Shown here piece by piece: positions 5,306 to 61,541 of a DNA stretch of 64,000 nucleotides; the stretch's first letter is position 1; every line of letters starts with the position of its first letter. The notes beneath the pieces were generated by a model that searched no databases, was not told the DNA's origin, and was given only the letters and a program-made list of their open reading frames with translations. The position numbers were made by a program, and so were the translations under genes. This DNA is from Gammaproteobacteria bacterium (GTDB lineage: Bacteria > Pseudomonadota > Gammaproteobacteria > CAJXQU01): positions 2,016,001 to 2,080,000 of the forward strand of contig CBDEGZ010000003.1 of the NCBI GenBank assembly GCA_965238175.1. The letters are read 5' to 3'.

Positions 5306-5332
5306 CACTAAATCTCAAACAAAGTATTGTTT

Positions 5333-5914
5333 ATGAAAAAAATCATATTTATTTTACTCCTCTTTATTTCACTCCTCTATACTTGCTCAACCACTAATAT
5401 TCTTGCAAAGGTAGAGTTGAAAAACTGTCCTGTTTCTGATGGATTTGATTTTCCAGTAGGAAAGCCTGATTCCAAAAAATATTATAATGCACAAAAATTT
5501 GGCAAAAACTACCATCTTGGTGATGATTGGAACGGCATCAGTGGCGGAAATTCTGATTTTGGTGACCCCGTTTTCTCTATAAGTAATGGAATAGTTTTCT
5601 TTGCTGGTGATATAAAAGGAGGCTGGGGAAATATAGTTCGTATCTATCATAATTATGGTACATCGGAAAAACCGATTTACATCGAATCTATATATGCGCA
5701 CTTGGATAGAATTCTTGTTAAATCAGGAGATCTAATTAAAAAAGGAGATAAGATAGGCACAATAGGTAATGCCAATGGCCAATATTTTTCCCATCTACAC
5801 TTTGAGATAAGAGATAAAATAAATATGAAAATAGGTAGAGGATATTCAAAAAATACAACAGGTTACTTAGACCCAACAGCTTTTATAAATAAATATAGAA
5901 TTCTTCCTGACTGA
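5333..5914 (+). CDS. M23-family metallopeptidase, exported
   Basis: Signal peptide; HLGDD (HxxxD), YAHL and HLHFEIR motifs. Confidence 0.88.
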   Translation: MKKIIFILLLFISLLYTCSTTNILAKVELKNCPVSDGFDFPVGKPDSKKYYNAQKFGKNYHLGDDWNGISGGNSDFGDPVFSISNGIVFFAGDIKGGWGNIVRIYHNYGTSEKPIYIESIYAHLDRILVKSGDLIKKGDKIGTIGNANGQYFSHLHFEIRDKINMKIGRGYSKNTTGYLDPTAFINKYRILPD

Positions 5915-8951: not shown

Positions 8952-10056
8952 GGCGGTTTCAAGTTCCAAGTGCGCCATTAACGGCTTTCAAAAAGACCTC
9001 TTCCGGTGTTCGATAGTTGAGTGATTTACGAGGTCGTTGATTAATTAATGTAACGGCTTTTTTAATCTGCCTTTTTGTTACTTTACGGAAGTCCGTGCCT
9101 TTTGGAAAGTAACGTCGTAACAAGCCGTTGGTTTGCTCATTTGTACCACGCTCCCAAGGGGAGTATGGATGCGTAAAATAAACGGACATTTGTTTACTTT
9201 GTGCTATTTCATGATGCCGTACATTTTCACTACCATTGTCCAAAGTCAGTGTCTTACACAACGTCTCTGGAATGGATTTAAAACATTTCTTAGTGGCCAT
9301 GGTAAACGTATCTGCACAGCCATCCATTAATTTCTCAGCAAGCAAAAAACGACTCTTACGTTCGACATGCGTCGCTAATCCACCCCCGCCTTTGCATCCT
9401 TCAACCGTATCACCTTCCCAATCGCCCAGTCGGTTACGTCTGTCGACAACAGTAGGACGTTCTTCAATACAAACGCGGCCAGGGATATGGCTTCGCTTAC
9501 CTGCTGGGCGCTGTCGTTTACGTTTGTTATGTTGAGAGCTCAAGCAAGTATATAACTCACCTCCATCAAACGCATCTCGATAGATCCACTGATAAATACA
9601 TTCTGTACTGACGTACCTTTTAGTCGTTGTTCGTTTCAAATAACCGCTGATGGCATCGGGCGACCAATGTTGATGCAATGTTGATGTAAGTGTTTCTGAA
9701 CAAATTCGTAAAGAGATGCATTATCACGTTTTCGATAATGGCGAGCCTGTGTCTTACGAAGACAGGCTTGTCTATCAGCAAATTCGTTACAGTAAGATAA
9801 GTTTCGTAGGCGACCATTGCGTGTGACTTCTCGGGCAATGGTACTGTGGTGACGATTGAGACGTCGTCCAATGTCTCGATAGCTTAATCCCCAGTGCAAT
9901 AAATACATTAAGGTGTGACGTTCTTTTGCGCTAAAATGATGATAAGGCATGGCTTTTTCTCCAATAGAATAAGATCTCGACAATCTCATTCTAGCAAGAC
10001 GGAAAGTCATGTCTTTTTAATCACGGCTAGTGGCGCGCTTTGGAGTTGAAACCGCC
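8952..10056 (-). mobile_element. IS30-family element copy 1 (1105 bp)
   Basis: 26-bp IRs starting GGCGGTTTCAA (22/26 match); 3-bp target duplication GAG. Confidence 0.95.
8959..9950 (-). pseudogene. IS30 transposase frameshifted by an 11-bp tandem duplication
   Basis: HTH N-terminus and GDWEGDT/LTLDNGSE/PWERGTNE core lie in different frames; CAATGTTGATG x2 at 9665-9686. Confidence 0.9.
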
Positions 10057-13502: not shown

Positions 13503-14666
13503 ATGCTTACTACACTTGCGATAAGTAATTATCGTTCATTGCTTAATCTCGCAATGCCATTGGATGAATTAAATGTAGTGACTGGAGCAAATGGTAGCGG
13601 TAAATCTAATTTGTATCGCTCACTCAGATTGCTAGCAGAAACCTCGCAAGGTGGTGTTGTAAATGCGCTAGCAAGAGAAGGGGGGCTTGGTTCAACTTTT
13701 TGGGCTGGGCCAGAAAAGATCACAAAAGGAATGCGCCGTGGTGACGTACCAATTCAGGGAACAAATAGATCATCTACTGTTCGATTGAAGTTAGGTTTTG
13801 CGAGTAAAGATTTTGGTTATGCCATTGAGCTTGGGTTACCAGAGCCTTCCAGTTCCATGTTCTCGCTTGATCCAGAAATAAAACGTGAATGTATTTGGGC
13901 AGGCCCAGTTTGTCGTCCTGCAAGTTTGCTGGTTGATCGAAAAGGTCCAATGCTTAAAGTTCGTTCAGGTAGAAGTTGGGAAGTTATTAATCAACACCTT
14001 AATACCTTCGATAGCCTTTTTATGCAGGCGGCAGATCCTGTTAAATCCCCAGAAATTTTTCAATTAAAGCATCTGATTCAGGACTGGCGTTTTTATGATC
14101 ATTTTCGTACTGATGCGGAAGCTCCAGCACGATTACCACAATTAGGTACACGGACTCCAGTATTACATCACGATGGTCGAGATCTGGCTGCCGCTTTGAG
14201 AACGATTATGGAAATAGGTGATCAAGAAGCACTCGGTGAAGCGATCAGTGATGCCTTTCCAGGTGCAAGACTTGAGATCACAAGTCAAGGAGATGGGCGA
14301 TTTGCTGTAGCACTTTACCAAGAAGGTTTGCTACGCCCTTTATCGGGATCAGAGTTATCCGATGGCACACTGCGTTACCTTTTATGGATAGCAGCTCTAC
14401 TCACACCAAGACCACCTTCGTTAATGATCCTTAACGAGCCAGAAACAAGTTTGCATCCTGATTTATTACCAGCCTTAGCTAGATTGATCATCAAAGCATC
14501 CGTTAATACACAAGTATGGGTGGTTTCTCATGCGAACAGGTTAATTGCAGCTTTGAATAAGGATCCCGAATGCCATTCTGTTGAGTTAGAAAAAGAACTA
14601 AGTGAAACACATATCGTTGGACAGTCTTTGCTTGTTGGACCTGCTTGGTCCTGGTCTGGAAAATAA
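13503..14666 (+). CDS. SMC/RecF-like ABC-type (AAA_21) ATPase
   Basis: ISNYRS, Walker A GANGSGKS, signature LSDGT, Walker B LMILNEPE, VSH. Confidence 0.88.
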   Translation: MLTTLAISNYRSLLNLAMPLDELNVVTGANGSGKSNLYRSLRLLAETSQGGVVNALAREGGLGSTFWAGPEKITKGMRRGDVPIQGTNRSSTVRLKLGFASKDFGYAIELGLPEPSSSMFSLDPEIKRECIWAGPVCRPASLLVDRKGPMLKVRSGRSWEVINQHLNTFDSLFMQAADPVKSPEIFQLKHLIQDWRFYDHFRTDAEAPARLPQLGTRTPVLHHDGRDLAAALRTIMEIGDQEALGEAISDAFPGARLEITSQGDGRFAVALYQEGLLRPLSGSELSDGTLRYLLWIAALLTPRPPSLMILNEPETSLHPDLLPALARLIIKASVNTQVWVVSHANRLIAALNKDPECHSVELEKELSETHIVGQSLLVGPAWSWSGK

Positions 14667-41153: not shown

Positions 41154-42683
41154 CTAGATCTCATTAATATCGAGGACAAATTTCAACCTGACATCACCGA
41201 TATCAACTTTGTCACCATCTTTAATTTTACTCTTAGGAGTTTTAGTGTTGTTAAGATAAATGCCATTTAATGAATCTAGATCTGTCACCGTAAAATTACC
41301 ATGTTGATCTCGTTTGAATTCGGCATGTTTTCGAGAAATGGAAGAGTGTTCCAGGAACAAGTCACTTTGTCTTATTCGACCAACTAACCAGGGTGATTTG
41401 TTAATTTCGTAATAGACAGGATCCTCATCCAGTGAAACCAGCCAGGCAATAGGCTTTCCACCGTCATCTTTAATGATAACTTCTTCAGGTTTTTTGTTTC
41501 TGAAAAGGACGAAAGAGAGTAAGCCTAATACAAATAAACCTCCAGGAATGATCGGCCAATATTTTATAATCGGAGAGCCGCTAAAGAGCTCATGTTCTTG
41601 TTCCATGTCGTCCGTGTTTATTAAAGGTTCAATATTGTTCTCAGCTGGCTCTTTGTTTAGAACAGCCTCAGTATTATTCTCAATTGTTCTATTATCTATG
41701 CCACTGTCCTTGTTAATAGAAATAGTGCCGCTGTCTTTCAATTCTGCAACGGTTGAATCATTTGTTGAGGAGAGTTCCAGAGGCAGCTTGACGGTGATTT
41801 TTTTACTAGTTGTCTCGAATATAAGTAGCGCTAATTGGACACCAGAAACATCATTAGTAAGCACTCGTGTTAGATCAATAGTTAAAACACCGCCATTGTC
41901 GATAACCGCATATGGATCAGACATAAATGTTTCAGGCAACTCAAAATCATTCTCTGTTGCCTTGGTAAACATTCCACCCGTGTCAGTAGATAAGTTTGAC
42001 AGAGTTTCGGTTGTGTCTATTGGATTATCAGCAACTGGATAAGCAATTGATACGATTTTAATGGCCGATTCCTTTGCTGCTTTGACGACATCGGCATGAT
42101 AAATGGCTTGATCTTCATATACACCACTAGAAAAAAGATAAATTGCTTTTCTATCTGCTTGGCTGGATTTCAATAATTCTAATGCGTCAAGAACATTTCT
42201 ATAGAGTTCAGTTGGTTGATCTGTTTCTGTTAATTCATTAACTATATTAATGATTTCTTCTGGATCACTGCCGAGTGATTTTAAGATATTGAGACGAGAA
42301 TCAAATGTTGCCAGTCCAATTTGTTGGTAAGGCAGCGCTTGTTGCGCAAGCGCGGTCACTTGATTTTTGATTTGTGGTAATCGTTCTGGGTTTTCAGATT
42401 TACTACTATCAACAAGAAACAAAATACTAGTGGTACTCTCTTCAAAAGGATATGTTTTGATATCTTGAATTGGTAGTTCTGTTGTTCCAAGAGATGCAGA
42501 AATCATTTTCGTGATTTCAGGTTGGGTGAAACGGTAGGCACACTTTATGGCCTTGCTATCTTCAGTTTGAGCACATGTAAATTCGATATCTGAAGTTAAG
42601 ACCTGCGCGTGTTGAGCCCGCCCATTTTGTATGGATAGCAAAATAAAAGTCAAGATAACAATCGGATTTGTTATTCGTTTCAT
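41154..42683 (-). CDS. Signal peptide-vWA-TM-FHA protein
   Basis: MIDAS-like LVDSSKS, TM WPIIPGGLFVLGLLSFVLF, FHA motifs GR, SRKH, SLNG. Confidence 0.82.
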   Translation of the reverse strand: MKRITNPIVILTFILLSIQNGRAQHAQVLTSDIEFTCAQTEDSKAIKCAYRFTQPEITKMISASLGTTELPIQDIKTYPFEESTTSILFLVDSSKSENPERLPQIKNQVTALAQQALPYQQIGLATFDSRLNILKSLGSDPEEIINIVNELTETDQPTELYRNVLDALELLKSSQADRKAIYLFSSGVYEDQAIYHADVVKAAKESAIKIVSIAYPVADNPIDTTETLSNLSTDTGGMFTKATENDFELPETFMSDPYAVIDNGGVLTIDLTRVLTNDVSGVQLALLIFETTSKKITVKLPLELSSTNDSTVAELKDSGTISINKDSGIDNRTIENNTEAVLNKEPAENNIEPLINTDDMEQEHELFSGSPIIKYWPIIPGGLFVLGLLSFVLFRNKKPEEVIIKDDGGKPIAWLVSLDEDPVYYEINKSPWLVGRIRQSDLFLEHSSISRKHAEFKRDQHGNFTVTDLDSLNGIYLNNTKTPKSKIKDGDKVDIGDVRLKFVLDINEI

Positions 42684-42857
42684 ACTAAATGCAATTTGAA
42701 TTTAATTTAGGCAGGCTGCATTTTGCACCAACACTGTGTTGGATGAAAGCCTTATCTAGCAAGCATTACGCTGACTTATGCTGATTGAATTATGATCTAA
42801 CACAATTTGACTTGTTCGACACAAGTCGAAACAGAAAAGCTGTCTAAATTGATTTAG

Positions 42858-43379
42858 TTATTTTTCTGGGAATAGTGGATCTGGCATATCAAAAAATTCC
42901 ACATTGACACTGATCTGCCCACCTTGCGTGCTGTCTTTTACTTCAGCAACAGGATTATCGCTTTCTGAAATTTCCCCCAGTTGTGGTAATTTTTTGTTTA
43001 GTTTTGCTTTTGCCTCGACCACTTTTTTATGTAGATTATTACTAAACGGTAGTTGGTAGGCACGAGGTGTTTTTGATTTTTTGCCTGAAGTCATATCAGA
43101 CAGCCATAGATAGATTGCACCATTGGTTCCAGCAATTTTGTCTGGTTCTTCGACATGTGCAGCAAGAAGGTGGAATCTTTCTGGAATATTTTTATCGCTT
43201 GTCGGCCAGCCTAATAGTGGAGGGAAGGAAAAGTAACAAACCAGGTAGAATAATGAGACTAAAACAATGGCACTGGCTTTGACTGGCCATGACCAAATGG
43301 AGTAAAGGTTAAGACTAAGCAGTAGCAAAGCTAATAGTAAAAAGGCGATTAGAAGCCCTGCAATACTTAAAGTAAACAT
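42858..43379 (-). CDS. Uncharacterised membrane protein (2 N-terminal TMs)
   Basis: Two hydrophobic helices, then LGWPT, EP, IYLW, PRAYQLPF motifs. Confidence 0.75.
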   Translation of the reverse strand: MFTLSIAGLLIAFLLLALLLLSLNLYSIWSWPVKASAIVLVSLFYLVCYFSFPPLLGWPTSDKNIPERFHLLAAHVEEPDKIAGTNGAIYLWLSDMTSGKKSKTPRAYQLPFSNNLHKKVVEAKAKLNKKLPQLGEISESDNPVAEVKDSTQGGQISVNVEFFDMPDPLFPEK

Positions 43380-43392
43380 TATTCTTATTCTC

Positions 43393-44004
43393 CTAGCTAT
43401 TTATTACCAAGGGTTTGTACAGGTGATTAATGTCAGTCACTTTGCCATCAGATCCAATCACAAATCTAACGGCGGTTTTTTCATCACCCCGGGTTTCCAA
43501 TTTGTGCGTTCCGTAGTAGACAATTTCCAATGCAGGATTGACTTTAGCCAGTTTAACCTTAACGTTAACCGGTTGTTCTGTTTCCGAAGCGTAGTACTGA
43601 ACATTAACGACATACTCACCGGGGACAACACCGCGAATAGTGACAACTTCTTGATTTAATGGGTTGGTAATCTCTTCACCATTGATGGTAATGGTGTCAT
43701 TTGCTATACCACGGTCATCGCGATCAAGATGAATCAATCCAGCTTCGCGATTTCTGAACCAGATCAAATTACCTTTCGGATCTTCAACCCAGGTATCGAT
43801 ATCATCGGGTACATTATCTGGCCAGGTGATGGTAATAATATATTCAGCTTTAGGATCAATAATGCCTTTTTTGGCCACAGGGTTCATAAACATAATGGCT
43901 ATTATGAATAAAAAAGTGAAACCCAGCAGCGCATTAAAAAGTAGATCTGTGAATGGATCTGATGCATAACGCTGTTTCGCTTTTTGACTCCAGGAAAGTG
44001 CCAT
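43393..44004 (-). CDS. MotB/ExbD-like TM protein with an atypical soluble domain
   Basis: TM with Asp (PFTDLLFNALLGF); DIDTWVEDP, LDRDDRG, GEYVVNV. Confidence 0.72.
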   Translation of the reverse strand: MALSWSQKAKQRYASDPFTDLLFNALLGFTFLFIIAIMFMNPVAKKGIIDPKAEYIITITWPDNVPDDIDTWVEDPKGNLIWFRNREAGLIHLDRDDRGIANDTITINGEEITNPLNQEVVTIRGVVPGEYVVNVQYYASETEQPVNVKVKLAKVNPALEIVYYGTHKLETRGDEKTAVRFVIGSDGKVTDINHLYKPLVINS

Positions 44005-44028
44005 TGTTTAGTTGCTCATCGTTTAGTT

Positions 44029-44802
44029 TTAGGCCTGATTTTGAGTTAAGTTTTGTTCAAGGTTAGGCAAAATATTTACTTCTGCAGTATGGACGGCTGA
44101 ATGCATCAAGTCATCCGCGCCACGATCTACAAGTTGATATTGCATCGCAAGTAGTAAACTACCAACTAAACCAGCTAGAGTGGTGTACAAAGCAGTACCC
44201 ATTCCGGAACTCATTTGTTGCATGACTTTCTGCATAGCATTCAGATCAAGGTTTGATGAGTCTGCAACAGAACCAAGCATAAAAATAAAACCGACAATGG
44301 TACCTAGCAAGCCAAGTTTGATCATAGCATCGACAAAAAACCAACCGTAATCATGGCTCGCTTTTAGTTTGTCAGAATAAATTTCTGCGAGTGCTGAGTT
44401 ACTATTTTTATCCTTATTTTCGTTTGAAACTTTACTGGCCTTTATCGTATCACCAAGGAAGTCCGCTAAAATGCTAATGGGTAATATTGTTTGATCCGCA
44501 AGTCGCAATGACATGTTCTTTTGCTTATCATTTTCCAGATGGACAGGTTTGTTTTTATTCTTTTCGATTAAATTATTGGCTTGATTAGCTAGCATAATTT
44601 GCTTGGAAATTAGCCATGACCTAAATGCACAATGCAGTGTCCCGAGTGAATAAATCAGACATATCGCGATGGAGATTTTGCTCTTATCACTGGCAAATAA
44701 AGTCTGGAAGAGATCTTGATGCCACGCAACCACGATGCAGAAAAAAATAGCGCCAGTGAGTATTAACCAGTTGAGAAATAGATGATGATCTTGTTTATTC
44801 AT
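44029..44802 (-). CDS. MotA/TolQ/ExbB proton-channel family protein
   Basis: LGLLGTIVG and GMGTALYTTLAGL signatures, four TMs. Confidence 0.88.
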   Translation of the reverse strand: MNKQDHHLFLNWLILTGAIFFCIVVAWHQDLFQTLFASDKSKISIAICLIYSLGTLHCAFRSWLISKQIMLANQANNLIEKNKNKPVHLENDKQKNMSLRLADQTILPISILADFLGDTIKASKVSNENKDKNSNSALAEIYSDKLKASHDYGWFFVDAMIKLGLLGTIVGFIFMLGSVADSSNLDLNAMQKVMQQMSSGMGTALYTTLAGLVGSLLLAMQYQLVDRGADDLMHSAVHTAEVNILPNLEQNLTQNQA

Positions 44803-44933: not shown

Positions 44934-45410
44934 CTATAAAGGTACTGCATTTTCTTCCAGAGCATATGCAACGATTTCACGTAGAGTGGCGTTCATTTTC
45001 TTTGCAAATTCATTCACTCTAGGATCCTTATGATTCAGCGGTAAGAGTATAAGACTGACGACCACGAAATCCTCTTCTTCATGCACAGTGACTCTACAGG
45101 GCATTTGAGCTACAAAGCCGGGATCAATATCCAAGACTTCCTTGGCAACATCTAACGAACAAAAATGGATTACCTCAATGTCTGGATAATTTTCATAACC
45201 TCTGTTACGTAAGCCCTTACCGACTGTATTCCGACCAGTAATGCGAAAATTTTTTTCAGTGATTGAGAAATCTAATTCTTGAATAATATCTTCAAACGTT
45301 TTTTCAGTTTTGAACCTAACGATCAGTTCCTCATTATCACTCTTCTGATCGACTTTTTCGGTGCAGCTTATGGAGAGAAAACAAAAAAGTAGTAAGCTAA
45401 GTAGTTTCAT
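44934..45410 (-). CDS. DUF302-family lipoprotein
   Basis: Lipobox-like SISC, HFC and MPCRVTVHE motifs. Confidence 0.78.
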   Translation of the reverse strand: MKLLSLLLFCFLSISCTEKVDQKSDNEELIVRFKTEKTFEDIIQELDFSITEKNFRITGRNTVGKGLRNRGYENYPDIEVIHFCSLDVAKEVLDIDPGFVAQMPCRVTVHEEEDFVVVSLILLPLNHKDPRVNEFAKKMNATLREIVAYALEENAVPL

Positions 45411-45444: not shown

Positions 45445-45996
45445 TTAATCAAAAATCACCACTGGCGTTCCGATTTTTACGAAGGTCCGTAATTCTTCAA
45501 TCTCTTCGTTTTTGATCGCAACACAACCCTTGGTCCAGTTTTCATCTTTATGCAGAGAGAGTCGATCCTCTGTTTGCTCACCGATGCCATGAATCCCAAT
45601 CGCGCCACCAAGATCAGTTTCCTGATTAGGGATTGTTTTCCTTTTTAAGGAACGGATTATCTGTTTAAACTCATCTTGATTGATGGTTTTCTTTTGTAAT
45701 CCTATCAGCGCGTCTTTAGCATTTGGATAATTCAGCTGCATAAAAAGATGAAAACGACTTTCTTCTTTAAAATGCAAAATTCGGTAGACACCCGTTGGAG
45801 TCATTTTGTCTCCCAGCTTGATTTTAGTCCCAGCTCCACCACTTCCTGTCGCAATGTGGTAGCTCTTTTTAAGTAGATGATCTTTCTTTAACAACATTAT
45901 TCGATCAGCTTTATATATTTCGATAGTGTAGTTACCGGCAGCAATACAGAACGTGTTAACACTGCTTAGTAAAAGGAAGATAAGGAAACTTTTCAT
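45445..45996 (-). CDS. L,D-transpeptidase (YkuD) family protein
   Basis: GDKMTPTG.Y, IGIHG, WTKGCVA; likely start MKSFLIF. Confidence 0.88.
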   Translation of the reverse strand: MKSFLIFLLLSSVNTFCIAAGNYTIEIYKADRIMLLKKDHLLKKSYHIATGSGGAGTKIKLGDKMTPTGVYRILHFKEESRFHLFMQLNYPNAKDALIGLQKKTINQDEFKQIIRSLKRKTIPNQETDLGGAIGIHGIGEQTEDRLSLHKDENWTKGCVAIKNEEIEELRTFVKIGTPVVIFD

Positions 45997-46145
45997 TTGT
46001 AATTTATCTATAGTCCTTAATTTATAGTGAAAATCAGGAAAAATGACTAGCGCTTTATGATCTATAATCTGCACTGCTCTTAATTATAATTCTAATGCCA
46101 AGCGCTTTTAGATGCCATATATAAAAGGACATATACCTAATAACA

Positions 46146-52374: not shown

Positions 52375-53079
52375 TTATTGTTTTTGAGCGCAGATCAAAT
52401 AATTCACTTTTAGATCTTCTGTTAGGGCAGCTTCACTATTGATCGGGTTGTATGACATTCCTGATAGATCTTCCAGATTGAGATCATGTTTTCTTAACCA
52501 ATTAGCTATTTCTGCAGGTTGGATAAATTTTGCATAATCGTGGGTTCCTTTCGGCAAGAGAGACAATACATATTCAGCGCCTAAAACGGCGAACACATAG
52601 GCCTTCAATGTTCGGTTTAAGGTTGATAAGAAAATGTAACCATCTGTTTTGACCAATTTTTTGCATGCAACGATAATGCTTTCGGGGGAGGGTACGTGTT
52701 CGAGCAACTCCATACAGGTGACGACGTCAAATTGTTCGTAATTATCTGCTGCCAACGCTTCTGCCGTTGAATGTAAGTAATGTACTTTTGATCCGCTTTC
52801 CATTTGCTGCAGGCGGGCAACTTGCAAAGCTTCTTCACTGGCATCAATAGCGGTGACGATTGCGCCTTTGCTATCCATGCTTTCCGCTAAAATTCCACCA
52901 CCACAGCCAATATCCGCAACAGTTTTAGGCTTAAGTTCTCCTGAACGATTTTCGATATACTCAAGTCGTACAGGGTTAATATGGTGTAGGGTTTTTAGAT
53001 CGCCTTTTGGATCCCACCAGTTTGATGCCATCAAGCTAAATTTGTTGATTTCGTGAGGGTCGATATTTGGATTATTCAT
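52375..53079 (-). CDS. ubiG: Ubiquinone biosynthesis O-methyltransferase
   Basis: WWDP.G...LH.INP.RL, DIGCGGG, CMELLEHVP, LPKGTH. Confidence 0.96.
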   Translation of the reverse strand: MNNPNIDPHEINKFSLMASNWWDPKGDLKTLHHINPVRLEYIENRSGELKPKTVADIGCGGGILAESMDSKGAIVTAIDASEEALQVARLQQMESGSKVHYLHSTAEALAADNYEQFDVVTCMELLEHVPSPESIIVACKKLVKTDGYIFLSTLNRTLKAYVFAVLGAEYVLSLLPKGTHDYAKFIQPAEIANWLRKHDLNLEDLSGMSYNPINSEAALTEDLKVNYLICAQKQ

Positions 53080-53804
53080 TCGCTCATTATATCAACAATC
53101 GAGACGGTTATATTATCCGTACCTCCATCGTTAAGTGCTAATTTGATCAATTGTTGTACTGCTTCTTGAGGATCATAATTATTTAATGTTTCTTCAATAA
53201 CAGAATGGGAAACATGCTTATCAAGACCGTCAGAACTGAGTAAAAAACGATCCCTCTCGTTTAGCTCACTAGTTCCGGTCTCAAGTTGTAGATCACCATG
53301 AGTACCAATACAACGAGTAAGCACATTCGCTGAGGAATGCCGACTTGCCTCATCACGTGACAGCATTCCAAGATCGACATAAACTTCGGCTTGAGAATGA
53401 TCACGAGTAAGTTGGGTAAGTTCTTGATCTCTTAGCTGGTATAATCGACTGTCGCCAGCCCAAATGAAGTGACACTCGTCATCTACAATATGCATAACAA
53501 TAACCGTACTGCCATTAATACGATTATTCTCATTGCCCACTTCAATTAATCTGTTATTTGTTTTATAAAGTGATAGCTTTATTTTTTCTATTGATTCATT
53601 TGTTGATTCTGATGGGTTTTCTAATGAGAGTTCATTCACAGATTCAATAATAAATTGACTGGCAAAATCGCCTGCGTCGTGGCCGCCCATTCCATCGGCT
53701 ATTACCCATAGATTGGCTTCTGGTTTATCAAGAAAGGCGTCTTCATTATGTTTGCGTACGCATCCAACGTGTGTTGCCGAACATGATGCACTGATAAAGC
53801 TCAT
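53076..53804 (-). CDS. PP2C/Stp1 Ser/Thr phosphatase
   Basis: RKHNED, ADGMGGH, GDSR, SDGL, DNIT. Confidence 0.93.
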   Translation of the reverse strand: MSFISASCSATHVGCVRKHNEDAFLDKPEANLWVIADGMGGHDAGDFASQFIIESVNELSLENPSESTNESIEKIKLSLYKTNNRLIEVGNENNRINGSTVIVMHIVDDECHFIWAGDSRLYQLRDQELTQLTRDHSQAEVYVDLGMLSRDEASRHSSANVLTRCIGTHGDLQLETGTSELNERDRFLLSSDGLDKHVSHSVIEETLNNYDPQEAVQQLIKLALNDGGTDNITVSIVDIMSE

Positions 53805-53820
53805 TTTTAATGTAGGAAAC

Positions 53821-54714
53821 TTATTCGCGGGTTATCTGGAAATGCAGAACATGCTCGGGATGTTCTTTGAAAGATTTACCAAAACTTATCTCACCCTCGG
53901 GCGGTAGAAGCATTTCGTCTCGGCGTAGAAATATCTCTCGACCTTTTTCATTTTTTATCCAAGTTCCATTGGTACTTAAGTCAATGATGAAAAGCTTTCC
54001 TCGACGATTTTCTATCGTGAGATGTTGTCGCGAGGCTAATTCTTCTTCTAAGGCTATATCGCAATGCATACTTCTACCAACTGCGAATTGGTTTTGTTTG
54101 TCACGGAAGACATAACCTTGCTTATTGTATTGCATCATTAAGGTTGTTGGTATTTTATTTTTGCGAGCGGCACCAATTGTCATTTGAGTGAGATCTTTTT
54201 CGTCATCAAATATTTCATAGATATCAATATCTTCAGATTTTCCTTTCATTTGAGTTCTATCAATGTGTCGACAATTTTCAAAAAGTCCTGTAGGTAATTG
54301 TTTTGCAGTTTCTCCTGAAGTTATAATTTGTCCTGGTTTTGAGAGGGAGACAAGTCGGGCGGCGATATTAACGGAATCACCAAAGACATCACCATTCTCC
54401 ATAATCGTAGGCCCGGAGTGTAGGCCAACCCGGATATCCAATCTTTTATGTAGTTCAACTTGAATAGACTCTTTTTGTATTTGACAGGCCGCTTTGACGG
54501 CATTCTCCACCGATTCAAACCGAATCATTAGTTCATCACCGATGGTTTTGACAATGATTCCACCACTACGTTCTGCAATTGTTTCAATTGATTGTAAACA
54601 TTCGGAAACTCGTTCTTTAGCCTTTTGATCACCAAGCCTTTCGTACAGTTGAGTGCTGTTACAAATATCAGCAAATAACAGGGTTTGATTGGTGTTTTTT
54701 ACTTTTGTGGTCAC
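53821..54714 (-). CDS. Class III adenylate cyclase with C-terminal FHA domain
   Basis: FADICNST, KTIGDE, DVFGDSVNIAARL; FHA GR, SRQH, STNGT; likely GTG start at 54714 (the ORF-track extension is IS sequence). Confidence 0.88.
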   Translation of the reverse strand: MTTKVKNTNQTLLFADICNSTQLYERLGDQKAKERVSECLQSIETIAERSGGIIVKTIGDELMIRFESVENAVKAACQIQKESIQVELHKRLDIRVGLHSGPTIMENGDVFGDSVNIAARLVSLSKPGQIITSGETAKQLPTGLFENCRHIDRTQMKGKSEDIDIYEIFDDEKDLTQMTIGAARKNKIPTTLMMQYNKQGYVFRDKQNQFAVGRSMHCDIALEEELASRQHLTIENRRGKLFIIDLSTNGTWIKNEKGREIFLRRDEMLLPPEGEISFGKSFKEHPEHVLHFQITRE

Positions 54715-54776
54715 TTTAAGGTAGCCCAGGTATTCCGGACACTTCAAAAGAGAGACAATACTTTTAGAGGTGAGCC

Positions 54777-55073
54777 ATGTCAAAACGTCAAAGTTATACC
54801 CGAGAATTCAAGTTAGAGGCCGTGCGACTGCTTGAGCAAAGTGACCAAACAGCCGCTGAGCTTGCGATTCAATTAGGTGTGCGTCGCAATCAACTGTATA
54901 AGTGGCAAGAAGAAGTCAATCAACACGGTAGCAGCGCTTTTCCAGGATCTGGTCGACGCGAAGCCAGCGAGGAAAGCGAAGTCGTGCAACTTCGCCGTGA
55001 GCTTAAGCGTGTTAAGGAGGAACGCGACATACTAAAAAAGGCCGCACAGTTCTTTGCCAAGGAACTGGATTAA
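54777..55073 (+). CDS. IS3 OrfA
   Basis: YTREFKLEAV HTH, EERDILKKA. Confidence 0.92.
   Translation: MSKRQSYTREFKLEAVRLLEQSDQTAAELAIQLGVRRNQLYKWQEEVNQHGSSAFPGSGRREASEESEVVQLRRELKRVKEERDILKKAAQFFAKELD
55034..55040 (+). other. Programmed -1 frameshift heptamer A-AAA-AAG
   Basis: In the OrfA frame; the -1 frame is open through to OrfB. Confidence 0.85.
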
Positions 55074-55888: not shown

Positions 55889-57114
55889 TGTAGAAGTTTA
55901 GACCCAATCTGACACATCACTAAATCAAGCGGAGCGTAGCGACGCTTGATTTAGTGAGAGTTACCCGCTTTGATGTAACTGCAACGTAAACATCAAAACA
56001 CAAAGAGGTAACTCTCATGATTCATACTAATGACAAAGTTATAAAACATAAAGTTGGTCTACTCAATCTCGCTGAAGAACTCGGCAATGTCTCAAAAGCC
56101 TGCAAGATGATGGGTTTGTCCAGAGATACATTTTATCGCTACAAAGAAGCGGCTGATGAAGGCGGTGTAGAAGCCTTGTTTGATCGTAATCGGCGTACCC
56201 CAAATCTTAAAAACAGAATCGACCCGGCTATTGAAACCGTTGTGCTCGAGTATGCACTGGAAGAGCCCGCACATGGTCAAACGCGCACCAGTAACGAGCT
56301 GCGCAAACGGGGAACATTTGTCTCACCCAGTGGCGTTCGTTGTATCTGGCTTCGTCATGGTCTTGCTTGCTTTAAAGATCGCCTGAAGGCATTGTCTGAT
56401 AAGGTAGCTGGTGAAGGCTTGATCCTCACTGAGTCTCAAGTCGCGGCGATGGAACGCAAGAAAGACGACGATGAGGCTTGTGGCGAGATAGAGACGGCAC
56501 ACCCTGGTTATCTTGGCTCGCAAGATACTTACTATGTCGGTACTTTCAAAGGCATTGGTCGGGTTTATCAACAAACGTTTGTTGATACTTACAGCAAGGT
56601 CGCTCACGCGAAACTGTACCCGACTAAAACACCGATTACGGCAGCTGACATGCTCAATGACCGCGTCCTCCCATTCTACGAAGAACAACGTTTGCCTATG
56701 TTGCGCATTTTGACAGATAGAGGGACGGAGTATTGTGGGCGAGCTGACCAGCATGATTATCAGCTTTATATGGCGTTGAACAATATCGAACACACCAAAA
56801 CCAAGGTCAAATCACCTCAGACGAATGGTATTTGTGAGCGATTCCATAAGACGATCCTCAATGAGTTTTATCAAGTCGCTTTGCGTAAGAAAATTTACCA
56901 ATCGATTGATGAACTGCAACTCGACCTTGACGAATGGTTGCTCAAATACAATACTCAACGAACTCACCAAGGCAAAATGTGCTGCGGGAGGACGCCGATG
57001 GAAACACTCATCGACGGACAAGCTATCTGGAAGGAAAAGTTTGTGAATTAAACTTAACCTGACAGTCGGTTACTGATAATTGGGTAACTGTCAGATCAAA
57101 TCTGAATTTCTACA
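55889..57114 (+). mobile_element. IS481-family element, complete (1226 bp)
   Basis: TGT...ACA ends, 26-bp IRs (20/26 match); no target duplication visible. Confidence 0.94.
56017..57051 (+). CDS. IS481 transposase
   Basis: HTH plus rve DDE core, GAGG RBS. Confidence 0.95.
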   Translation: MIHTNDKVIKHKVGLLNLAEELGNVSKACKMMGLSRDTFYRYKEAADEGGVEALFDRNRRTPNLKNRIDPAIETVVLEYALEEPAHGQTRTSNELRKRGTFVSPSGVRCIWLRHGLACFKDRLKALSDKVAGEGLILTESQVAAMERKKDDDEACGEIETAHPGYLGSQDTYYVGTFKGIGRVYQQTFVDTYSKVAHAKLYPTKTPITAADMLNDRVLPFYEEQRLPMLRILTDRGTEYCGRADQHDYQLYMALNNIEHTKTKVKSPQTNGICERFHKTILNEFYQVALRKKIYQSIDELQLDLDEWLLKYNTQRTHQGKMCCGRTPMETLIDGQAIWKEKFVN

Positions 57115-58270: not shown

Positions 58271-59552
58271 CAACAAGGTTTTTTTTAAGTGTCTAATTTT
58301 TTTGTAAACAGTATGGGAAAATCCTTATCCCCTGTACTCTTAACTAATTCCTTGGCTTGCAAGATACTCTTCATACGTGCCGGCAAAATCTACAAATCCA
58401 TCTTCTCTCATATCAAAGATACGAGTTGCTAATGATCCAACAAACTCGCGGTCATGACTGACGAAAAATAAAGTACCTTCATATTGTTCCAAAGCCATGT
58501 TAAGCGATTCAATTGATTTCATGTCCATATGGTTAGTTGGTTCATCCATGATCAACATATTCGGCTTTTGTAGAATTAATTTACCAAACATCATTCGTCC
58601 TTTTTCCCCACCGGAAAGGACATTTACTTTCTTATCGATCATCTTTCCTGAGAATAAGAGACGACCGAGTGTGCCTCGAATAACCTGTTCATCATCTTCA
58701 GGAGAACCCCATTGTGCCATCCAGTCATACAAACTGATATCCGCTTCGAAGAAGTGTTCATGATCTTGTGCGTAATAACCAATGTTAGAATTTTCAGACC
58801 ATTTGATCGATCCTGTCTTACTCGGTATCTCACCAAATAAAGTTTTGACGAAGGTGGATTTACCAATCCCGTTAGGTCCAATAATTGCGATCCGTTCGCC
58901 GACTTCAGTCATAAAACTTAAGTCCTTAAACAATGGTTCATTATCATCATAAGATTGGCTAAGGTTTTCAACTTCCAATGCATTTCTAAATAATTTCTTT
59001 TCTTGTTCAAATCGAATGTAAGGGTTAACACGGCTGGACGGTTTTATATCATCAAGCTCGATCTTCTCGATTTGCCTGGCTCTTGAAGTCGCTTGTTTTG
59101 CTTTTGAAGCATTAGCAGAAAAACGTGCAACGAAATCTTGTAACTCTTTTATCTGATCTTTCTTTTTAGCGTTATCTGCCAGTTGTCGTTGTCGTACTTG
59201 TGTAGATGCCAACATATAAGCATCGTAATTTCCAGGGTAAACGCGCAGCTCACCGAAATCCATATCGGCCATATGTGTACAAACACTGTTCAAGAAATGT
59301 CGATCATGCGAGATGATAATTATGGTGCTGTTTCGTTGATTGATAATATCCTCCAACCAACGAATAGTATTAATATCTAGATGATTGGTGGGTTCGTCGA
59401 GTAACAAAATATCCGGATCGGCAAATAACACCTGCGTCAATAAAATACGTAATTTCCAACCCGGTGCGATCTCACTCATTGAACCATAGTGTTGTCCTGT
59501 CGGTATCCCAACACCGAGTAACAACTCACCTGCACGAGATTCCGCGGTATAA

Positions 59553-60657
59553 GGCGGTTTCAAGTTCCAAGTGCGCCATTAACGGCTTTCAAAAAGACCT
59601 CTTCCGGTGTTCGATAGTTGAGTGATTTACGAGGTCGTTGATTAATTAATGTAACGGCTTTTTTAATCTGCCTTTTTGTTACTTTACGGAAGTCCGTGCC
59701 TTTTGGAAAGTAACGTCGTAACAAGCCGTTGGTTTGCTCATTTGTACCACGCTCCCAAGGGGAGTATGGATGCGTAAAATAAACGGACATTTGTTTACTT
59801 TGTGCTATTTCATGATGCCGTACATTTTCACTACCATTGTCCAAAGTCAGTGTCTTACACAACGTCTCTGGAATGGATTTAAAACATTTCTTAGTGGCCA
59901 TGGTAAACGTATCTGCACAGCCATCCATTAATTTCTCAGCAAGCAAAAAACGACTCTTACGTTCGACATGCGTCGCTAATCCACCCCCGCCTTTGCATCC
60001 TTCAACCGTATCACCTTCCCAATCGCCCAGTCGGTTACGTCTGTCGACAACAGTAGGACGTTCCTCAATACAAACGCGGCCAGGGATATGGCTTCGCTTA
60101 CCTGCTGGGCGCTGTCGTTTACGTTTGTTATGTTGAGAGCTCAAGCAAGTATATAACTCACCTCCATCAAACGCATCTCGATAGATCCACTGATAAATAC
60201 ATTCTGTACTGACGTACCTTTTAGTCGTTGTTCGTTTCAAATAACCGCTGATGGCATCGGGCGACCAATGTTGATGCAATGTTGATGTAAGTGTTTCTGA
60301 ACAAATTCGTAAAGAGATGCATTATCACGTTTTCGATAATGGCGAGCCTGTGTCTTACGAAGACAGGCTTGTCTATCAGCAAATTCGTTACAGTAAGATA
60401 AGTTTCGTAGGCGACCATTGCGTGTGACTTCTCGGGCAATGGTACTGTGGTGACGATTGAGACGTCGTCCAATGTCTCGATAGCTTAATCCCCAGTGCAA
60501 TAAATACATTAAGGTGTGACGTTCTTTTGCGCTAAAATGATGATAAGGCATGGCTTTTTCTCCAATAGAATAAGATCTCGACAATCTCATTCTAGCAAGA
60601 CGGAAAGTCATGTCTTTTTAATCACGGCTAGTGGCGCGCTTTGGAGTTGAAACCGCC
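59553..60657 (-). mobile_element. IS30-family element copy 2 (1105 bp)
   Basis: Same IRs as copy 1, 3-bp target duplication TAA, one SNP seen versus copy 1. Confidence 0.95.
59560..60551 (-). pseudogene. IS30 transposase with the same 11-bp duplication
   Basis: CAATGTTGATG x2 at 60266-60287. Confidence 0.9.
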
Positions 60658-61541
60658 TAACCATCCATCTCCGCATATTCAACTTCTAGTTCGGCCACTT
60701 TCATGCCTTCTTCATCAGACATTTCTGGCAGGTTATAGATACGATCGCGTTCTTTATGGACTTCCCATAATTTTGGATTGCCCATAATTACCACATCAAT
60801 GACACGTTGATCTTCGTAAGCAAACTGATCTTGTTTCAACACCGCGAATGATTCATTCGCATCGATACTGACATTGCCAGAACTTGCCTCCAATTCACCA
60901 GAAAGGATCTTCATAAAAGTCGATTTTCCACAACCATTCGCACCGATCAAACCATAACGATTACCCTCTCCAAACTTAACAGAGATATTTTCAAAAAGCG
61001 GCTTAGCGCCGAATTGCATCGTGACATTAGCAGTTGTTAGCAAGGTATTTTCCCTGTGGGATTGTCGTGAGATTTTCGGAGCTTAAGTAGTTTAAGGTTC
61101 TCAAAAAAACGCGACATTATACACAGTCGGTGCTTTGTTTAATAAGGCTGCATAGTATTATTCTGTGGAATTTTGAAACGGTACGAGGGGGGAAACCGAG
61201 CGGCTAAGCAAATGTAGACTTTGCAAAGGTTAATTTAGGTCAATTAATGGACAAGATGTGAGAAAACTTATTAATGAACTTTCATAATGTTAGTTGATTT
61301 ATTTATTGTCAAACATCACAAATCGGTGAACACTATGAAAGCCAAAAATATTATTGAAGGAACCTTTAAGAGGTTATGCATTTGGTTAAAGATTTTTGAG
61401 AGATGCAGCGGTTCATGAGAGAGCGTTGTATGTTTAAGCATGCATACCAATTTCAAGGGGATCGCTTAGGGGAAGGCTCATTTATTTTGATTGAATATAA
61501 AACCGTTATCTAACAAAAATAATTTTAAACTTTATTACAAT

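Follow-up and report, generated by a model that had tools for sequence, protein, structure and literature searches.

The window analyzed here is a stretch of 64,000 nucleotides (nt) from a gammaproteobacterial genome (GenBank assembly GCA_965238175.1, contig CBDEGZ010000003.1, positions 2,016,001 to 2,080,000), with a G+C content of about 39% throughout, and all window coordinates given below are its own. On its minus strand lies a compact set of three genes, designated A, B and C, which an initial annotation made from the sequence alone had described as an uncharacterized three-gene ion-driven membrane motor of the MotA/MotB type. As that annotation reported, the three genes are co-directional and closely spaced, with 24 nt between A and B and 13 nt between B and C. 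A fourth gene, D, which the annotation had left outside the unit, follows C after 174 nt. In this list TM stands for transmembrane, and the source of each assignment is given in brackets.

44802..44029, minus strand: gene A, a MotA/TolQ/ExbB-family subunit of 257 amino acids (aa) (open reading frame list and Pfam)
44004..43393, minus strand: gene B, a single-pass protein of 203 aa (open reading frame list, hydropathy and AlphaFold2)
43379..42858, minus strand: gene C, a two-TM hairpin protein of 173 aa (open reading frame list, hydropathy and AlphaFold2)
42683..41154, minus strand: gene D, a vWA-TM-FHA protein of 509 aa (Pfam)

Protein A matched the Pfam family MotA_ExbB (PF01618) with an E-value of 8.6e-10 and 38.9 bits, above the cut-off of 22.9, and the same family was recovered in the A homologues of 12 other loci and of Azospirillum. 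Its hydropathy profile displays four main peaks (residues 8-26, 42-60, 159-177 and 201-219), and no more than about 86 residues separate TM2 from TM3. In profile comparisons with hhalign, A reached 55.9% for TolQ, 41.0% for ExbB and 0.9% for E. coli MotA. Together, the four peaks and this ranking indicate a MotA-like topology built around a core nearer to TolQ/ExbB. As a single sequence, A retrieved no match among the solved structures of the PDB. In channels of this kind, the pore-lining threonines of the last two TM helices face the aspartate of the partner subunit. The A motifs GLLGT (TM3) and GTALYTT (TM4) align with the TolQ/ExbB motifs that bear these threonines, T168 corresponding to the Thr of the GTV motif and T207/T208 to that of the ATA motif, and these residues are invariant in 28 homologues. 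One study terms the Thr ring of such channels essential (PMC12204202). Protein A is presumed to form a pentameric ion-channel ring.

Protein B consists of a basic N-terminus, one hydrophobic segment (residues 21-39) in an N-in orientation, and a soluble domain. The membrane segment reads FTDLLFN, and its Asp20 aligns with D23 of TolR, D25 of ExbD and D32 of MotB (numbering counted from the E. coli sequences); the alignment places an Asp at this position in the Azospirillum and phage B proteins as well. In TolR, ExbD and MotB this membrane Asp is essential. It is kept in at least 90% of 96 representative B sequences and in 65 of the 81 proteins formed by the window and the 80 loci described below, the window protein being of the Asp type.

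The AlphaFold2 (AF2) model of B, built with 96 diverse homologues, reached a predicted local distance difference test (pLDDT) value of 91.1 and comprises a helix (16-39), a linker of about 14 residues and an all-beta domain whose strands occupy residues 55-193. Because the linker is so short, the sandwich is expected to lie near the membrane. Foldseek related the model to TerD-family structures (E 1.4e-4 to 1.7e-3, TM-scores 0.41-0.53, 12-17% identity), with no TerD match at the sequence level; a viral structure library returned only uncharacterized and TerD-like proteins, and the ESM Atlas only clusters without names, apart from one that had been labelled YfaP/DUF2135 automatically. By hhalign, the B profile aligned with E. 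coli YfaP at 89.7% (E 1.8e-6, 76 columns), residues 50-143 of B corresponding to 138-216 of YfaP. When the 96 members were scanned singly, weak matches appeared to PPC in 12, to DUF2135 in 8 and to ExbD in 2. The window protein itself gave no Pfam match at E-values up to 1, with neither OmpA nor ExbD (PF02472) detected, and no match in NCBIfam, PADLOC or PHROG or, as a single sequence, in the PDB. Searched against the PDB as a profile, B gave sub-threshold matches to the C-terminal domains of subtilisin-like proteases (E 0.33-0.43), with which it shares the motifs W..DxDLyv.DP.G and G.Y.v.V. Assignment of B to ExbD/TolR was ruled out, as hhalign gave 1.1% for ExbD and 0.7% for TolR and the predicted fold is a beta-sandwich. 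Unlike YfaP, PPC and TerD proteins, B has extra conserved loops (HLDRDDRG) and a MotB-type TM helix; YfaP, moreover, belongs to the alpha-2-macroglobulin (yfaS) operon of E. coli, which lacks a motor gene.

The soluble domain of B is strongly constrained. Residues W61, D68, D70, D96, G99 and E119 are the same in all 96 representatives, and E54, W61, D68, D70, H92, D94, D96, D97, G99, D103, N117, E119, R124 and N134 do not vary in any of the 81 proteins. The TerD fold carries two Ca2+ sites. By analogy with TerD and PPC, the B domain is probably a metal-binding, and specifically Ca2+-binding, sandwich, and the protein as a whole is presumed to act as a dimeric axle. Relatives of B amount to 3632 clusters at 90% identity and to 1853 representatives at 50%, of which 252 have E-values below 1e-30; among the matches listed, all source names are 'hypothetical protein'. 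One of the 150 representatives listed, P0268 (411 aa), joins a MotA_ExbB region (160-230) to a B-like region further along the chain (271-410); it may be either a genuine fusion of A with B or an error of gene calling.

Protein C has two hydrophobic segments (3-21 and 38-56), and its AF2 model (pLDDT 81.9) comprises a pair of TM helices and a small beta/alpha domain, with a short strand coming last. It found no match in Pfam, NCBIfam, PADLOC or PHROGs, nor by profile against solved structures, and Foldseek returned nothing significant for the model, the best hits being OB-fold proteins with E-values of 0.09 or worse. None of its 454 homologues has a precomputed Pfam domain, and their names are 'hypothetical protein' except for one labelled 'amino acid transporter'. 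Across 41 sequences, the loop between the two helices holds a mean of 2.0 Lys and Arg residues and the N-terminal tail none; under the positive-inside rule this distribution places both termini in the periplasm, so that the topology is probably N-out, C-out. Residues K34, G57, P66, F69, G87, W92, P105, R106 and G135 do not vary, and the PDPLFPEK tail at the C-terminus varies very little. A complex prediction with the periplasmic portions of B (44-203) and C (56-173) gave a score of 0.00 and a mark of 0.32, which speaks neither for nor against binding. C is a candidate accessory subunit or force transducer. Overall, the initial annotation had taken A for a four-TM MotA/TolQ/ExbB protein with both channel signatures, B for a single-pass protein with a MotB/ExbD/TolR-type Asp and a soluble part that is neither OmpA nor ExbD and recalls YfaP/DUF2135, and C for a two-TM protein whose soluble domain belongs to no known family, and all of these assignments agree with the results above.

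Protein D combines a vWA domain (Pfam VWA, 6.3e-13, residues 87-245) with an FHA domain (1.3e-17, residues 432-496). It starts with a signal-peptide-like segment, and its sole TM segment (376-394), which comes after the vWA domain, contains no Asp; this layout would place the vWA domain in the periplasm and the FHA domain in the cytoplasm.

The arrangement of these genes was followed across genomes by a scan of one genome per species, which yielded 226 loci with a B relative; the best 80 were kept, and the neighbors at each locus were identified by profile searches of all reading frames. These 80 loci come from gamma-, alpha- and betaproteobacteria and from one Nitrospirae-labelled bin. In 80 of 80, gene A lies immediately before B in the same orientation. 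Where the sequence continues for 700 nt or more beyond B (75 loci), C was recovered in 73, downstream of B on its strand in 72 of them and on the opposite strand in one (L060). As the same gene order recurs in 80 related loci, the arrangement is not a product of chance, and the idea that the trio is conserved as a unit held up. What follows B was counted in those 66 loci that have C and extend 2.6 kb or more downstream:

C, then D (vWA-FHA): 29 of 66 loci
two C genes, then D: 2 of 66 loci
C, then a DUF3108-like gene: 15 of 66 loci
two C copies: 8 of 66 loci
none of these arrangements: 12 of 66 loci

The fourth gene therefore varies, being a vWA-TM-FHA protein here and a DUF3108-like lipoprotein or a second C elsewhere. 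The one DUF3108-like protein that was read begins with a lipoprotein-type signal, and Pfam supports its DUF3108-like assignment. D follows C in 31 of the 66 loci, and the median C-D gap of about 14 nt (34 loci) indicates that it usually belongs to the same operon; D is a lineage-specific fourth component. In the window, the 174-nt gap contains a weak hairpin:

42809..42827, minus strand: terminator-like hairpin, weak, directly 3' of the C stop codon (consensus match only)

A scan of the region for promoters and terminators found no more sites than in shuffled sequences. Two further observations concern gene content at individual loci. One metagenome-assembled genome (MAG), JAURNY01, carries two paralogous clusters (L026 and L073), one with the YkuD, DUF302 and vWA-FHA set and the other with the DUF3108-like gene; and in L059 the A gene is immediately preceded by a canonical ExbB/TolQ-like gene (112-1029), so that both kinds of motor gene stand side by side.

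Sequence conservation was compared in the 34 loci where tilS and accA are present as well, as median identities to the window proteins:

B: 73.6% (a figure inflated because the loci were ranked by likeness to B)
AccA: 67.1%
C: 51.9%
A: 41.9%
TilS: 36.8%

Even so, B is conserved at the level of a housekeeping gene. A protein of an uncultured gammaproteobacterial MAG shares 96% identity with the window B.

The trio is also found in cultivable bacteria. Seven Azospirillum replicons have a B-like gene, with 29.5% identity at the protein level, and in the one record examined, from Azospirillum brasilense (NZ_CP059450.1; L083, 4154-5942), A, B and C stand in the same order, A matching Pfam MotA_ExbB at 2.7e-8 and C matching the C profile at E 2.8e-11. 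The Azospirillum-type B subfamily counts 4943 clusters, Azospirillum and Skermanella isolates among them, and the names listed are again 'hypothetical protein'. The same record holds two B-like places, and genes for an AmiC-type amidase and a BON-domain protein lie near the cluster.

Furthermore, 29 phage records contain a B-like gene, 27 of them named as Rhizobium phages and 2 as Sinorhizobium phages; gene context was taken from two, RHph_I1_9 and 16-3. In RHph_I1_9 the trio corresponds to gp146-gp148 (L081, 3534-5020), between the gyrase and late-sigma/SbcCD genes. Its gp146, of only 148 aa, is a four-TM MotA-like protein without the cytoplasmic domain, with 22.6 bits in Pfam (just below the cut-off), an E-value of 1e-6 to the A profile and 4e-4 to A by BLASTP; gp147 is B-like and gp148 C-like (hhalign 89.7%). 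In phage 16-3 (L082, 3271-5129), p040 is B-like, p042 weakly C-like (62%) and p038 marginally A-like (E 0.013). The phage trios lie among early or DNA-metabolism genes, and in PHROGs neither A, B and C nor the corresponding phage proteins matched a family, the sole match being one unrelated neighbor. A phage A protein devoid of the cytoplasmic domain favors a periplasmic over a cytoplasmic output.

We read A, B and C, with moderate confidence, as an ion-driven complex in the inner membrane, related in type to MotAB/ExbBD/TolQR (5:2) and with a periplasmic output. A would form a ring within which two copies of B seat their TM helices, and Asp20 of B would take up and release the coupling ion. 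The acidic beta-sandwich of B, probably Ca2+-binding, would stay close to the membrane on its short linker. The TM hairpin of C would dock on the outside of the ring, and its small domain and conserved C-terminal tail would pass movement or force into the periplasm. A variable fourth partner would receive this output: the vWA-TM-FHA protein in the present lineage, and the DUF3108-like lipoprotein or the second C in others. Most likely, the complex does housekeeping work in the envelope of the cell, acting on the wall or the outer membrane. With respect to the distinct three-gene motor that had been proposed, the conserved unit resting on a MotA/ExbB-family subunit stands, and the number of genes does not, since the unit is larger than three genes in this lineage.

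The genes upstream of A extend this picture:

45410..44934, minus strand: DUF302 protein bearing an N-terminal signal, perhaps a lipoprotein (Pfam DUF302, 1.1e-10)
46074..45445, minus strand: YkuD-type L,D-transpeptidase (Pfam YkuD, 7.2e-18)

Among the 75 loci with enough upstream sequence, 52 have a YkuD gene and 45 a DUF302 gene ahead of A in the same orientation, DUF302 being a conserved neighbor in the gammaproteobacterial loci. Both these conserved neighbors and D had been overlooked when the unit was limited to three genes. YkuD, DUF302, vWA and DUF3108-like products are envelope proteins, which argues for an envelope-directed role. On the other side of the cluster from YkuD and DUF302, the window carries tilS, accA and dnaE on the plus strand, and the cluster stands in fixed synteny beside tilS/accA in 37 of the 80 loci.

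Compared with known systems of this kind, the trio is a mosaic of shared and divergent features. It resembles TolQR and ExbBD in the TM3-TM4 core of A, which aligns with both Thr positions included, in the N-in, single-pass B with its aligned Asp, and in the adjacency of the two genes with A first. It differs from them in the two additional N-terminal TM helices of A, which give the MotA-like four-TM topology, and in the periplasmic domain of B, a DUF2135/PPC-like beta-sandwich rather than an ExbD/TolR fold. With MotAB/PomAB it shares this four-TM topology and the Asp aligned with MotB D32; however, the hhalign value for MotA is negligible, the TM2-TM3 interval is short, flagellar genes are missing nearby, and B has neither the OmpA-like peptidoglycan-binding domain nor the plug-linker.

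The closeness of the A core to TolQ/ExbB raises the possibility that the trio is a replacement or paralogue of Ton or Tol-Pal, with C as a TonB/TolA-like transducer that contacts partners in the outer membrane for uptake or for tethering that membrane, which would be a special case of the ion-driven complex. The 15 loci in which a DUF3108-like gene follows C favor this idea, as the resulting order of motor, transducer and lipoprotein is like that of Tol-Pal, and at one locus (L063) a TonB-dependent receptor gene lies nearby. However, the trio comes without TonB, TolA, TolB and Pal, its third gene encodes a two-TM hairpin of no known family, and C has neither a proline-rich spacer nor a TonB/TolA C-terminal domain, features that are likewise missing from D and the neighbors. 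The domains of B and C begin directly behind the TM helices, which makes it improbable that either protein spans the periplasm, and no TonB-dependent receptor, tolB or pal gene lies beside the window cluster. We therefore consider the Ton/Tol version rather unlikely. More generally, the absence of tonB, tolA/tolB, pal, flagellar and Zorya effector genes next to the trio, claimed by the initial annotation, was borne out by the neighbor scans with Pfam, NCBIfam and PADLOC, the open reading frames at 21.9-35.1 kb lying outside the Pfam scan.

A different function would be anti-phage defense of the Zorya kind, in which a MotAB-like sensor detects attack on the envelope and triggers a response. A does give weak ZorA matches (best PADLOC E 8.9e-8; NCBIfam 5.9e-4), phages, which frequently carry defense or exclusion genes, encode the trio, and the left part of the window has mobile and conflict-type genes. 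The ZorA matches, however, are confined to the shared TM core and fall far under the cut-offs (19 bits against 100 in NCBIfam), and A, at 257 aa, lacks the long C-terminal tail. There is no ZorB-type domain and no ZorC, ZorD or ZorE effector, B, C and D match no PADLOC model, and no nuclease or other effector adjoins the cluster. Its place beside tilS and accA is that of a housekeeping gene set, and B is conserved about as strongly as AccA, unlike arms-race genes. The lack of an effector, the fixed synteny and the high conservation make a defense role highly unlikely. Membership of Zorya itself was rejected on the sub-threshold score of A, the missing PADLOC matches and the nature of the neighbors.

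Several results weigh against the ion-driven complex proposed above. The principal one is that 16 of the 81 B proteins carry ITA(V/I)LFK in place of FTDLLFN, that is, D20A together with N24K; the membrane Asp, whose conservation the initial annotation had made a condition of its idea, holds in 65 proteins and is replaced by Ala, with a Lys four residues on, in a clade of 16 (L051, L054, L056, L059, L060, L064, L065, L067-L072, L074, L075 and L078), which partly counts against that idea. These proteins retain every invariant periplasmic residue. Their A partners show L165F, G202S, G211S and Q221P, all in TM3/TM4, and no compensating acidic residue was found in them; at nine of the 16 loci, C is duplicated in tandem. 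The co-variation between A and B fits a contact of the B helix with TM3/TM4 of A, although it counts as one event because the loci form a single clade. It follows that a proton relay through the membrane Asp is not universal in the family. Additionally, A is very far from every solved motor, its profile reaching TolQ in the PDB only at E 0.87. C is absent from L056 and L059 despite room downstream, the room at L059 including a masked stretch, and the role of C, which the initial annotation took for the output arm, is a guess from its position and topology. The loci compared are the best 80 of 226 and are all MAGs. Finally, complex formation, the 5:2 stoichiometry, ion flow and rotation are predictions rather than direct observations.

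Instead of a force-generating motor, the trio could be a membrane sensor or channel, in which B binds Ca2+ or another periplasmic ligand and the complex gates ions or signals to the cytoplasm, through the FHA domain of D in the present lineage. In fold, B is similar to the TerD family, whose members bind Ca2+; all 81 proteins, the Asp-less clade included, retain the acidic residues D68, D70, D94, D96, D97, D103 and E119; D couples a periplasmic vWA domain to a phosphopeptide-binding FHA domain in the cytoplasm; and genes for a PP2C phosphatase and a cyclase-FHA protein lie about 10 kb away. On the other hand, D is missing from 35 of the 66 loci, the phage A protein lacks a cytoplasmic domain through which to signal, and Ca2+ binding itself is suggested by likeness of fold. 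The MotB-type Asp and the Thr positions are kept in most members, which points to ion-coupled mechanics. A sensor or channel is the less likely reading, and the ion-driven complex remains the preferred one.

The search of the literature found no description of the trio or its family, and 'DUF2135' occurred in no paper searched. The nearest counterparts involve D. The AglRQS-Glt gliding machinery (PMC11761067) likewise pairs a MotAB-like motor with GltG, a single-pass protein with a cytoplasmic FHA domain, and the FHA domain of D gives a weak match to the NCBIfam GltG model (8.4e-8; 31 bits, cut-off 650); in D, however, the order is reversed (vWA N-terminal and periplasmic, FHA C-terminal), and no other glt or agl genes are present. 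TolQ-like motors with vWA partners have been described (Mol Biol Evol 2025, PMC12204202), and, in the available text, these resemble the present cluster in having a TolQ-like gene without a recognizable tolR/exbD beside a gene for a membrane-tethered vWA protein, in Proteobacteria and with no assigned function. In those systems the vWA protein itself supplies the helix, which is either TonB-like (SHLS) or an N-terminal trans-pore helix with the Asp. In the present cluster it is B that provides the Asp helix, and D has its TM segment after the vWA domain and a cytoplasmic FHA end, a distinction drawn from the textual description; the gene sets of that study may still overlap with this cluster. 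D as a trans-pore-helix vWA protein of that type was ruled out by its signal-peptide-like start and by the segment 376-394 without Asp. Non-flagellar relatives are grouped as 'generic ion transporters', some of unassigned function, in PMC12505986, the available text of which mentions no domain like that of B. The trio is widespread yet essentially unnamed, the names among the matches listed being 'hypothetical protein' apart from the label of the one C homologue.

Other features of the window were recorded in passing. A PP2C phosphatase gene stands beside an adenylate/guanylate cyclase-FHA gene at 53076-54783 on the minus strand, about 10 kb from D, and this pair may reflect phospho-Thr signaling read by the FHA domain of D. 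Two repeat pairs, with 100% identity across the 300 nt reported, occur at 8952-10010 and 59553-60611 and at 1-300 and 56478-56777; both carry transposase open reading frames (HTH_38 plus rve; rve_3), and the copy at 59.5-60.6 kb interrupts an ABC-F-type ATPase gene (58340-59563 and 60657-61043). In the left part of the window, the open reading frames 1111-1503, 5327-5914 and 13503-14666 encode a SUKH-1 (SMI1/KNR4) immunity-type protein, an M23 peptidase and an AAA_21 (AbiEii-like) ATPase, and several others without a family match are interspersed among them, giving the look of a variable island. Rfam returned zero matches over the whole window.

Few 5:2 motors are understood, namely the flagellar stators, Ton, Tol, the gliding motors and Zorya, and each of them opened a field. 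The trio would join them as a further branch, with an axle domain and a third subunit that are both new. The naturally Asp-less variant is informative about ion coupling in such motors, and the reduced A protein of the phages about which parts are essential; the cultivable Azospirillum and the Rhizobium phages make genetics and structural work feasible. A more ambitious and tentative proposal is that the family constitutes a fourth major branch of 5:2 motors, a housekeeping machine working across the envelope and characterized by a Ca2+-binding DUF2135-like axle in place of a domain that binds the wall, a hairpin transducer, swappable partners in the periplasm or outer membrane (vWA-FHA or a DUF3108-like lipoprotein), a phage-captured minimal form and an Asp-to-Lys sub-branch. 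If this were true, the Rhizobium phages would have captured a minimal motor to take over the energetics of the host envelope, and the Asp-to-Lys sub-branch would work by a different charge mechanism.

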